A stretch of DNA of 37,755 nt from Chloroflexota bacterium (lineage in GTDB: Bacteria > Chloroflexota > Limnocylindria > Limnocylindrales > CSP1-4): assembly GCA_005880805.1 (NCBI GenBank), contig VBFZ01000038.1:1-37755 (forward strand). The letters are read 5' to 3'. A program made the translations under genes and the position numbers. The notes under the pieces were generated by a model, which worked only from the letters and a program-made list of their open reading frames with translations, made no database searches and was not told where the DNA came from. Each line of letters starts with the position of its first letter. Positions within the stretch are counted from its first letter, which is position 1. Below are positions 32,109 through 34,672 of this stretch, piece after piece.

Positions 32109-32482
32109 TGGTGGAGATGGGGGAGAGTCGAACTCCCCGTCCAGAGCCCTTCACCAGGGACCACTACGAGCGTGTCCGATGATTTGTCGTCGACCGGCTG
32201 GTCGGCCATCGGCAGCCTGCCATCCGGTCCAGTCACGTGCCCCTAGATCGGGCTTTGCTCCGGACTACGCGACGCTGATCCTGAGCGCATCCCCGCTGAA
32301 TGACGCTTCCACGACCCGCGGGGATGAGGTCGCTTCCACGCTCACCTTACGGCCTAAGCCGCGAGGGCGAGAGCAGTCTGGCGGTTGCCAGTTACTTCGT
32401 TTTGCCGCCTGTTTTACGAGGCCTGACGGCACCTCGGCTCGCGTTCCCTGACAACTGGACCCTGTCGAGACCACGCATCCCC
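32109..32482 (-). ncRNA. ssrA: tmRNA (transfer-messenger RNA)
   Basis: 5' GGGGAUG pairs with 3' CAUCUCC-ACCA. T-arm GGGGAGUUCGACUCUCCCC. 5' UCGAC motif. Tag frame 32389-32354 encodes GNRQTALALAA*. 374 nt, near smpB. Confidence 0.97.
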
Positions 32483-34018: not shown

Positions 34019-34432
34019 CTAGCGGCCGCGCTGGACGTCAGCCAGCTCGCGGGCGACCTCGCGGCGGGCATCTCGCTCGGCGATATCACGGCGCTTGTCG
34101 TGCAGCTGCTTGCCGCGCGCCAGCCCGAGCTCGACCTTCGCCCGCCCGCGGTCGCTGATGTACAGGCGGAGCGGGACGATCGTCTGGCCCTTCCTGGCCG
34201 CACGCCCGAGCAGCTCGTCGATCTCCGAGCGATGGAGCAGGAGCTTGCGCGTCCGCTTCGGCTCGTGGTTGTAGCGGCGATCGATGCGCGCGTAGGCATC
34301 CGTGAGATTGACCTTGTTCGCCCGGATCGACTTGATCTCCGTGCCGGTCAGGACGATGCCCGCCTCGAAGGTCTCGTCGATCGTGTAGTCGTGCCGCGCC
34401 CGGCGGTTGAGGGCGACGGTCTGCTCGCCCAT
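34019..34432 (-). CDS. smpB: SsrA-binding protein SmpB with an apparent internal in-frame deletion
   Basis: NRRARHDY, EAGIVLTGTEIKSIR, RTRKLLLH, IVPLRLY, LARGKQLHDKR. Only 137 aa; the GE.WL..HI.PY segment is missing. Confidence 0.93.
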   Translation of the reverse strand: MGEQTVALNRRARHDYTIDETFEAGIVLTGTEIKSIRANKVNLTDAYARIDRRYNHEPKRTRKLLLHRSEIDELLGRAARKGQTIVPLRLYISDRGRAKVELGLARGKQLHDKRRDIAERDARREVARELADVQRGR

Positions 34433-34564
34433 CGATCAGCTCCAGCTCGGAGCACCGGCGGGAAAGGGAGCCCGGCGCTCCAGGATCGGGATGTGGCAGA
34501 CGCACGAACGCCGGCCCGTTGCGGACCGGCGCTCGTCAGCGTTGCCACCCCACAGGGTGCCCGT

Positions 34565-34615
34565 CTAGACGGTCATCTCCTGTGAGGTGGTGCAGCTACG
34601 CGAACTTTCGATCAC
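34565..34615 (-). CDS. Candidate 16-aa small ORF MIESSRSCTTSQEMTV
   Basis: GTG at 34615 preceded by AAAGGAGGTGAT with 9 nt between GGAGG and the start. TAG at 34567-34565. Confidence 0.5.
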   Translation of the reverse strand: MIESSRSCTTSQEMTV

Positions 34616-34643
34616 TGCACATCACCTCCTTTCGTTCGGTCGA

Positions 34644-34672
34644 ACCCTACCCGAAGGCGTACGGCGGTGCAA
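34644..34672 (-). promoter_or_regulatory. Putative sigma70 promoter TTGCAC-N17-TAGGGT for the small ORF/smpB leader
   Basis: -35 at 34672-34667, -10 at 34649-34644, exact 17-bp spacer. Confidence 0.6.

Follow-up and report, generated by a model that had tools for sequence, protein, structure and literature searches.

A conserved, putatively translated small RNA of Chloroflexota with a predicted self-gating Shine-Dalgarno switch, located upstream of smpB in Limnocylindria

The locus and its features

The window analysed here is a stretch of 37,755 nucleotides (nt) from a Chloroflexota bacterium of the order Limnocylindrales, class Limnocylindria (contig VBFZ01000038.1 of assembly GCA_005880805.1). 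On its minus strand, ftsE, ftsX and an S41/PDZ peptidase gene are followed by a 280-nt spacer, smpB, a gene of the proline-racemase family and, further on, the gene for transfer-messenger RNA (tmRNA). This work concerns a small element in the spacer, which carries promoter-like boxes, a very long Shine-Dalgarno (SD) sequence, a 16-codon open reading frame (ORF) and a GC-rich hairpin. Our analysis suggests that the element is an autonomous, translated small RNA in which the SD of the ORF would be opened and closed by two competing helices, and that in the window it likely also serves as the promoter and 5' leader of smpB; we place the probability of this reading at roughly 0.5. The features of the element are listed below in the numbering of the window, with coordinates taken directly from the sequence.

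34667-34672, minus strand: -35 box TTGCAC, read from the sequence; TTGC(A/G)C stands at equal distance in relatives, and TTGACA-type boxes in other families
34644-34649, minus strand: -10 box TAGGGT (TAnnnT), 17 nt past the -35 box; T, A and last T at least 90% conserved in 93 sequences
34621-34633, minus strand: segment a, the 13-nt SD GAAAGGAGGTGAT (also written GAAAGGAGGUGAU); invariant in the family alignment and in an independent BLAST set, conserved phylum-wide
34565-34615, minus strand: small ORF VIESSRSCTTSQEMTV, GTG start at 34615-34613, 16 codons, TAG stop at 34567-34565; all 135 complete family members have 14-17 codons
34584-34595, minus strand: segment b, the anti-SD CTGCACCACCTC (CUGCACCACCUC) within the ORF, codons C-T-T-S; partner of segment a in the predicted minimum-energy fold
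34584-34628, minus strand: helix P1 (state A), GAGGUG..GUGCAGU / GCUGCAC CACCUC, SD and start codon sequestered; predicted by folding, upper stem 98% paired
34577-34580, minus strand: internal SD-like GGAG, 9 nt 5' of the stop; a GAG or GGA codon at position -4 in 99 of 103 unique ORFs
34561-34572, minus strand: palindrome CCGTCTAGACGG, stop codon in the loop, read from the sequence
34544-34591, minus strand: helix P2 (state B), ACCACCUCACAGG... / ...CCUGUGGGGUGG, stop codon (34565-34567) in the apical loop; predicted by folding and compensatory changes
34545-34551, minus strand: segment c, SD-like GGGGUGG 3' of the stop, competitor of the SD for the anti-SD; GGGTGG nearly invariant
34500-34542 (core; here about 34489-34551), minus strand: GC-rich rod resembling an intrinsic terminator hairpin, ACGCnnACGAGCGCCGG...CCGGCGUUCGUGCGU; predicted by folding, compensatory changes in 10 of 13 pairs
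34449-34481, minus strand: last hairpin, ending 17 nt 5' of the smpB ATG (34432); predicted by folding, conserved only in the same-genus genome G001
34019-34432, minus strand: smpB, 137 residues (Pfam SmpB, 2.9e-48)

Segment a is complementary to the 3' tail of 16S rRNA. The promoter, SD, 16-residue ORF, palindrome, rod and hairpin had all been described by an earlier reading of this DNA that was made without database searches (the sequence-only reading), and all of them were found again on the minus strand. Its description of the whole as a multi-hairpin unit held in part: P2 and the rod are conserved, but the last hairpin (34481-34449) is genus-specific and lies outside the conserved core, as BLAST alignments to other genera stop before it. 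Since a generic scanner for sigma-70 promoters and terminators finds nothing at the element, the promoter and terminator calls are drawn from conservation, which for the promoter means TTGCRC and TAnnnT conserved at fixed spacing. The tail of the rod is poor in U (UUCGUGCGU) in the family of the window, and the 3' flank of the rod is paired.

The region of the start codon contains three GUG triplets that are 5 nt apart and in three frames (34613-34625, minus strand: G GUG AU GUG CA GUG AU). The middle one opens a mini-ORF of two codons, GUG CAG UGA, whose stop overlaps the main start (GUGA), and some other families have GUG UAG or GUG UAA at this point, so that a start is followed immediately by a stop.

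Conservation of the unit and of its small ORF

The core of the element (34499-34656) is present in one copy in its genome, other matches being noise of 14-20 nt, and a repeat or mobile element was ruled out by this single copy. With BLAST, the core (34656-34499 as read on the minus strand) was recovered at 69-92% identity in 23 of the 24 genera of the family, and an exact-pattern scan of species genomes returned at least 120 loci, nearly all in metagenome-assembled genomes named as Limnocylindrales or Chloroflexota. A covariance model built from 93 non-redundant copies (R1) has matches in 281 of 301 Limnocylindria genomes, including 153 of 154 genomes of high quality, and in 56 of 57 genera, while a sequence-only model of the 45-nt 5' part (R2) matches 143 of 251 Chloroflexota genomes, with one match per genome in nearly all cases, and at genus level 87 of 146; the E-values of both models are rough. 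Small genomes of the size of Dehalococcoides have no R2 match.

The R1 matches reach other classes of Chloroflexota, and 19 of the 20 loci fetched there show the full build: a promoter of the TTGACA/TAnAAT type, GAAAGGAGGUG(A/G)UG..., a start at equal spacing, an ORF of 13-31 codons that often begins with M-x-D-S-S, an SD-sequestering helix, a stop codon within a hairpin and a U-tailed terminator. The same build was found at 19 of 20 further R2 matches that were sampled, among them loci on chromosomes of 5,258,541 bp and 6,346,587 bp, and the sampled loci with the full architecture span more than 20 families. From these comparisons the element appears to be an autonomous small transcription unit that is conserved in one copy across much of the phylum Chloroflexota and adjoins smpB only in Limnocylindria.

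The small ORF begins at one start position in all complete members of the family. The start codon is GTG, save in one copy with TTG in which a 1-nt insertion shifts the start; across families, starts swap among GTG, ATG and TTG, and the stops TAG, TAA and TGA are all found. Between the SD block and the anti-SD block, 143 of 144 unique sequences have a spacer of 15, 18, 21 or 24 nt; the sole exception is the TTG copy. Third-position entropy peaks at codons 2-3 (ATC/ATA, GAC/GAT), and the codons ACC ACC, which form the anti-SD, and GAG, which is part of the internal GGAG, are fixed at all three positions; their invariant third positions therefore point to an RNA-level constraint there. In sister families of the class, the start (GTG or ATG) lies 10-12 nt 3' of GGAGG, the ORF has 13 (f4), 15 (f2) or 24-28 (f3, f5) codons, and the peptides have related ends (TEVIAV, TEAVR, HEVSA and QEMAV). 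In addition, by our own reading of the sequences, a GGAG- or GAGG-like motif lies 6-12 nt 5' of the stop in nearly all families. The small ORF thus appears, from these patterns, to be under frame-preserving selection, and it is probably translated, a case made from the frame-preserving indels and related patterns.

It is conceivable that the peptide itself (N-terminal M-x-D-S-S, often rich in Cys, Ser or Thr, C-terminal E-V/M-x-A/V) is the product of the unit and that the helices only throttle its synthesis. The preserved frame, the synonymous variation at codons 2-3, the recurrence of N-terminal D-S-S and C-terminal T-E-V-like motifs between families and the extremely strong SD would all suit such a micropeptide gene. 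However, the peptides range from 13 to 31 residues with a middle that cannot be aligned, and Cys is not universal. Furthermore, the best-conserved codons are those of the anti-SD and the SD-like motif, where the constraint seems to act on the RNA, and the GGAG motif is kept even where the peptide loses its Glu (variants ...RGAGL). Ser, Thr, Cys, Asp and Glu are abundant in the peptides, which are hydrophilic and variable and have no hydrophobic stretch. A look-up of six peptides from other families of the unit in NCBIfam gave no match, and none of ten peptides of 20-31 residues from other families was present in a collection of 15 billion proteins; the 16-residue peptide of the window is too short for either look-up. 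We therefore regard a micropeptide gene as rather unlikely, although not negligible. A precursor of a ribosomally synthesized and post-translationally modified peptide or of a metallopeptide was ruled out, as Cys is not universal and the neighbouring genes looked at are not biosynthetic genes.

Competing helices, downstream genes and a possible mechanism

The minus strand folds at -137 kcal/mol (z = -3.66, with 0 of 200 shuffles as good) and the plus strand folds less well (z = -2.26). The sequence-only reading had argued from G-U pairs that selection acts on the RNA of the minus strand, and this argument holds in alignments, where G-U and U-G pairs are frequent (for instance, 35 U-G at one pair of the rod) and would be mismatches on the other strand. 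Its observation that the body of the ORF folds back on the SD region corresponds to P1, in which segment a and the start codon pair with segment b and which is present in the predicted minimum-energy fold of the window RNA. In the second helix, P2, segment b pairs instead with GGGUGG (segment c) just 3' of the stop, so that the stop-codon hairpin grows into a long helix. When 88 sequences were folded singly, P2 formed in essentially every one; it excludes the lower part of P1, as both use segment b. When each state was forced in 92 sequences, the predicted energies of P1 and P2 differed by -0.4 +/- 2.9 kcal/mol (median -0.1), and state B was the more stable one in 49% of the sequences.

After realignment to the covariance model, 95.2% of the pair cells hold standard pairs, compared with 31-46% when the partners were slid. 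Compensatory changes were counted in 25 of 37 pairs overall (among them 8 of the 11 outer and all 4 inner pairs of P2 and 10 of the 13 pairs of the rod), counts that are biased upward, as they come from an alignment fitted to the model. RNAalifold on a MAFFT alignment recovered only P1 and the core of the rod, because P2 is misaligned there; it was recovered by per-sequence folding and covariance-model realignment. Within the family, covariation of the SD:anti-SD pairs is not possible. From one family to another, segments b and c vary in concert:

f1: b CACCUC, c GGGUGG
f2: b CGCCGCCUCU, c GAGAGCGGU
f4: b CGCCACCACC, c CGCGUGGU
f27: b GGCAUCACCUC, c GGGGUGAUG

In f27, f55 and f15, segment c reproduces the 3' part of the SD letter for letter (GGUGAUGCCC or GGGGUGAUG), and equivalent SD-sequestering helices of other sequence are found in f2, f3, f4, f15, f27 and f35. 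The homologous terminator hairpins of f3, f4 and other classes have U-rich tails. On the basis of the folding models, the RNA is predicted to be a self-gating bistable SD switch with two mutually exclusive helices of equal predicted energy.

Other arrangements were seen in some families. In f3 (L198-L207), a covarying long-range helix, CCAAAGACCC / GGGUCUUUGG, joins the P1 loop to the region 3' of the stop, which could be a different way to build a competing structure and is possibly a pseudoknot. A second anti-SD (CUUCCUCC, GUCUCCUUUGU or UUCACCUCC) lies just 5' of the terminator or directly 3' of the stop in L277 and in L231/L270 (f8, f18), and in such families the SD can also be closed by long-range pairing between the 5' and 3' parts.

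A chance combination of a strong SD-like sequence with GC-rich hairpins in an intergenic spacer, without function, would agree with the empty result of the generic scanner and with the ease with which GC-rich DNA folds. It is hardly tenable against single-copy conservation at the level of the class and the phylum, the compensatory changes, the frame-preserving indels and the shuffling result, which we count as refuting it.

Among the 131 Limnocylindria loci that have sufficient sequence, 129 have the unit immediately 5' of smpB, in the same orientation and after the S41 peptidase gene. The smpB start lies 140-350 nt from the SD, with a single locus at 559 nt, and the rod ends about 133 nt 3' of the SD. 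In 22 of the 129 species (about 17%), smpB starts at most 40 nt (7-40 nt) past the rod, and in L022 the SD of smpB begins right after it. In those species smpB must be transcribed through the rod, because a separate smpB promoter cannot fit. Read-through is also suggested by birA and greA, whose starts, like that of smpB, stand 7-40 nt past the terminator in many species. In the window, neither reading nor the generic scanner found a promoter-like site in the 68-nt gap between the rod and smpB. It is most likely that in Limnocylindria, the window included, smpB is transcribed from the promoter of the unit by partial read-through of the rod, which would amount to co-expression and not to classical attenuation; the U-poor tail and the paired 3' flank of the rod would fit a weak terminator.

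The sequence-only reading had proposed that the unit is a leader-peptide attenuator of smpB. In its full form, a ribosome on the 16-codon ORF would decide whether transcription terminates at the rod, so that SmpB supply would be tied to translation stress. The position that this calls for was confirmed by the synteny just described; the want of space for another smpB promoter in about 17% of the species speaks for it as well, an ORF, alternative helices and a terminator-like hairpin are all there, and its biological logic is attractive. The mechanism was not supported. No antiterminator was found: the pairing probability of the terminator core is about 1.0 in 92 sequences, whether or not the part covered by a ribosome is masked (the RNA being cut 16 nt past the first base of the stop, for a ribosome at the stop, or just past the stop codon), and by inspection segment c matches the rod over at most 4 bp. 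The stop of the ORF lies a median of 38 nt 5' of the terminator core in the same 92 sequences, and in E. coli the repression of a terminator by a ribosome at the stop codon is lost once the two are more than about 30 bp apart (PMC4824070). Because terminator pairing is unaffected and the stop is a median of 38 nt away, the switch would govern the SD of the ORF itself and not termination or the SD of smpB, and in these models read-through into smpB looks constitutive.

The genes downstream of the unit argue further against such an attenuator. Outside Limnocylindria, none of the fetched loci is followed by smpB; the next gene is birA (three families), greA, mreB, moeA or none, and in 14 other Chloroflexota genomes that carry the unit smpB lies elsewhere. 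For instance, in two other families the unit is followed by birA (Pfam-confirmed) at L293:3258-4341, and by birA (by sequence motifs), GreA (Pfam-confirmed) and a probable lysyl-tRNA synthetase gene at L295:3174-5094. In f17, greA comes directly after the unit, in f6 and f12 birA starts about 20 nt past the terminator, and on the two chromosomes of 5,258,541 bp and 6,346,587 bp the unit has no conserved neighbour. Even within Limnocylindrales, the whole unit from its promoter to its rod has the opposite orientation at L059:5137-5296, where it stands between the S41 peptidase gene (ctpA) and smpB, and smpB is inverted and converges on the rod at L060:1359-1975; either the unit tolerates uncoupling from smpB or these are misassemblies. 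Taking both sides into account, we consider a dedicated attenuator of smpB improbable.

Several other features of the smpB region were recorded. The tmRNA gene (32109-32482, minus strand; 125 bits; tag peptide GNRQTALALAA) lies two genes downstream of smpB in the window, and in families f2 and f4 it comes directly after smpB. Mimicry of tmRNA or of an SmpB-binding site by the rod was dropped, without a formal test, since the sequence of the rod is family-specific. The SmpB of the window lacks about 17 residues (34270-34300, minus strand) relative to that of the same-genus L009 (154 residues, …ERGEAWLIGAHIAPWEGGN…), the remainder being near-identical, which could be a real in-frame deletion or an assembly artefact.

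The autonomous, translated small RNA with a self-gating SD switch is the reading that we favour, and it could work as follows. The unit would begin with a promoter, a very short 5' end and the 13-nt SD (a); then would come the ORF, translated and 13-31 codons long, and a hairpin that acts as intrinsic terminator. In state A, segment b would pair with the SD and the start codon (P1) and translation would be off, whereas in state B it would pair with the SD-like copy c (P2), leaving the SD free and the stop codon in a loop. The free SD of state B would capture a 30S subunit, and the ribosome reading the ORF would then melt the b:c helix. If, by the time segment b leaves the ribosome, the next ribosome is already on the SD, b would pair with c again; otherwise, it would pair with the free SD and the RNA would be shut until it flips back. 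The conformation of the RNA and translation of the ORF would in this way follow the supply of ribosomes. The output might be the peptide, the RNA acting in trans through exposed c or b, the stability of the RNA, or merely a strong promoter with a leaky terminator. In Limnocylindria, the unit would have become fixed between the S41 peptidase gene and smpB.

Several points weigh against this reading. The promoter, the terminator and translation are all deduced from conservation. The rod has no U-tract in the family of the window, which makes its activity as a terminator uncertain. The case for translation has to be built on the frame-preserving indels, because open frames of about 15 codons are not rare by chance in GC-rich DNA. 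Most sequences of family f1 were gathered with a pattern that fixed the SD block and the anti-SD core, and the invariance of the two blocks in f1 is therefore partly a matter of ascertainment, although the earlier BLAST set is free of that bias. To this the upward bias of the covariation counts must be added. Finally, the logic of ribosome traffic is our own proposal, and a two-state RNA could just as well sense temperature, bind a protein or act through its folding kinetics.

Significance and comparison with known systems

If the favoured reading is correct, the unit would add an undescribed family of RNAs with a small ORF, single-copy across much of a large and little-studied phylum and not contained in Rfam. 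Its design would be unusual, as the ribosome-binding site of the ORF, the anti-SD that the ORF contains and the SD copy that follows the stop appear to be balanced at equal predicted energy, and it would offer a model of how an mRNA might restrict or signal the flow of ribosomes along itself. For annotation, the structured smpB leader of Limnocylindria would be treated as a separate gene, and a dependence of smpB on the promoter of this gene is suggested.

Searches of Rfam 15 at gathering and at permissive E-values gave no family at threshold at the element, either in the window or in 12 relatives, and at threshold only tmRNA was found in the whole window. The best sub-threshold scores of the element were CC2171 (20.6 bits, against a threshold of 75) and miRNA-like hairpins; the CC2171, miRNA and Leu-leader matches were rejected, as they reflect only the SD or hairpins. 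Searches of the literature on smpB leaders, small ORFs of Chloroflexi and leader peptides likewise turned up no description of the element. The second hypothesis of the sequence-only reading, an undescribed small-RNA or small-protein locus, has accordingly fared well: of the checks proposed with it, the Rfam search returned no family at threshold, the genome copy count was one and the structure and ORF were conserved in relatives, and its conserved promoter, its terminator, the covariation in its structure and the preserved frame of its ORF now point in the same direction.

The Rfam family that comes nearest over its full length is Ms_IGR-5 (RF02471), which matches an f2 locus, L178:313-447, in a genome of about 1.1 Mb, with 27.2 bits (gathering threshold 45), the best score in any genome; the scores in f2 were 27.2 and 14.6 bits. 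At the element of the window there was no Ms_IGR-5 match at E<=10, the genome of the window gave only 13.9 bits on another contig, and no match at the element was found outside f2 among the other Chloroflexota genomes searched. Ms_IGR-5 is an actinobacterial small RNA (sRNA) of unknown function that RNA-seq has confirmed in Streptomyces (PMC8079986, PMC8780764) and that shows ribosome footprints in Mycobacterium abscessus and M. smegmatis (PMC4974804). Like the unit, it is a stand-alone sRNA unit, and the footprints are what would be expected of a translated small RNA; its Rfam consensus, through which alone the two were compared, has GGAAGGAGGUGG at the 5' end with its 3' part in the first hairpin, a second hairpin and a GC-rich terminator, an order of parts that agrees with the unit. 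In contrast, only f2 members match it, and they do so below the gathering score. The likeness hints at a distant link between the Chloroflexota unit and Ms_IGR-5, short of membership in that family.

Two further explanations draw on this likeness. In one, the unit is a trans-acting sRNA, possibly with dual function and maybe distantly related to Ms_IGR-5, in which segment b or c finds its partner in other mRNAs or in the 3' tail of 16S rRNA, and translation of the RNA itself serves as a gate. It would account for a stand-alone, single-copy unit with promoter and terminator and no conserved neighbour gene, for the conservation of a, b and c at the level of sequence and for the full-length match of f2 members to a family that is expressed in Streptomyces and occupied by ribosomes in mycobacteria. 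However, it has no known or predicted target, segment b is part of the translated frame, and the Ms_IGR-5 score stays under the gathering threshold, in f2 only, with no match for the element of the window; this explanation is accordingly doubtful. In the other, which we likewise judge doubtful, the unit is a ribosome-gated regulatory RNA, a bistable sensor of the supply of free 30S subunits or ribosomes whose states differ in activity (in trans or through read-through), and would be so ancient as to be homologous to Ms_IGR-5, a housekeeping sRNA common to Chloroflexota and Actinobacteria.

The favoured unit, an autonomous small RNA that gates its own SD, can also be set beside better-studied systems. 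With the trpL, leu, phe and pyrBI attenuators it shares a short leader ORF, alternative helices that have a segment in common and a terminator before a gene reached by read-through. However, its helices would control the SD of the ORF itself and not the terminator, and it has no antiterminator, no run of regulatory codons and no tie to one downstream gene family. The erm and cat leaders follow the same logic of SD, anti-SD and anti-anti-SD driven by a ribosome on a short leader ORF, with a peptide so short that it can remain in the exit tunnel. There, the stalled ribosome frees the SD of the downstream resistance gene, whereas the unit would gate the SD of its small ORF and has a terminator before the next gene; the SD of smpB lies 3' of the rod and is unpaired to a, b or c in the conserved core.

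The mRNAs of type I toxins such as hok, tisB and aapA1 likewise stand alone with a terminator and contain a small ORF whose strong SD is locked by an anti-SD in the same RNA. They differ from the unit in that its peptides are hydrophilic and lack membrane helices, and in that it is single-copy and near-universal in its class. The type I toxin-antitoxin-like label that the sequence-only reading had attached to the locus was for this reason abandoned, the peptides being hydrophilic and variable, although an antisense partner was not sought. A non-stop design like that of arfA and brfA was also ruled out: those mRNAs end or are cut before a stop and their product has a basic tail, whereas in the unit the stop precedes the terminator, by the median of 38 nt given above, and the peptides are acidic or neutral. 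Lastly, the SD/anti-SD/SD-copy switch is not described in the dual-function RNAs SgrS/SgrT, Spot 42/SpfP, SR1/SR1P and RNAIII, and no pairing target or peptide function is known for the unit; what it would have in common with them is the general plan of a short, terminator-ended RNA that combines a translated micro-ORF with a conserved structure.

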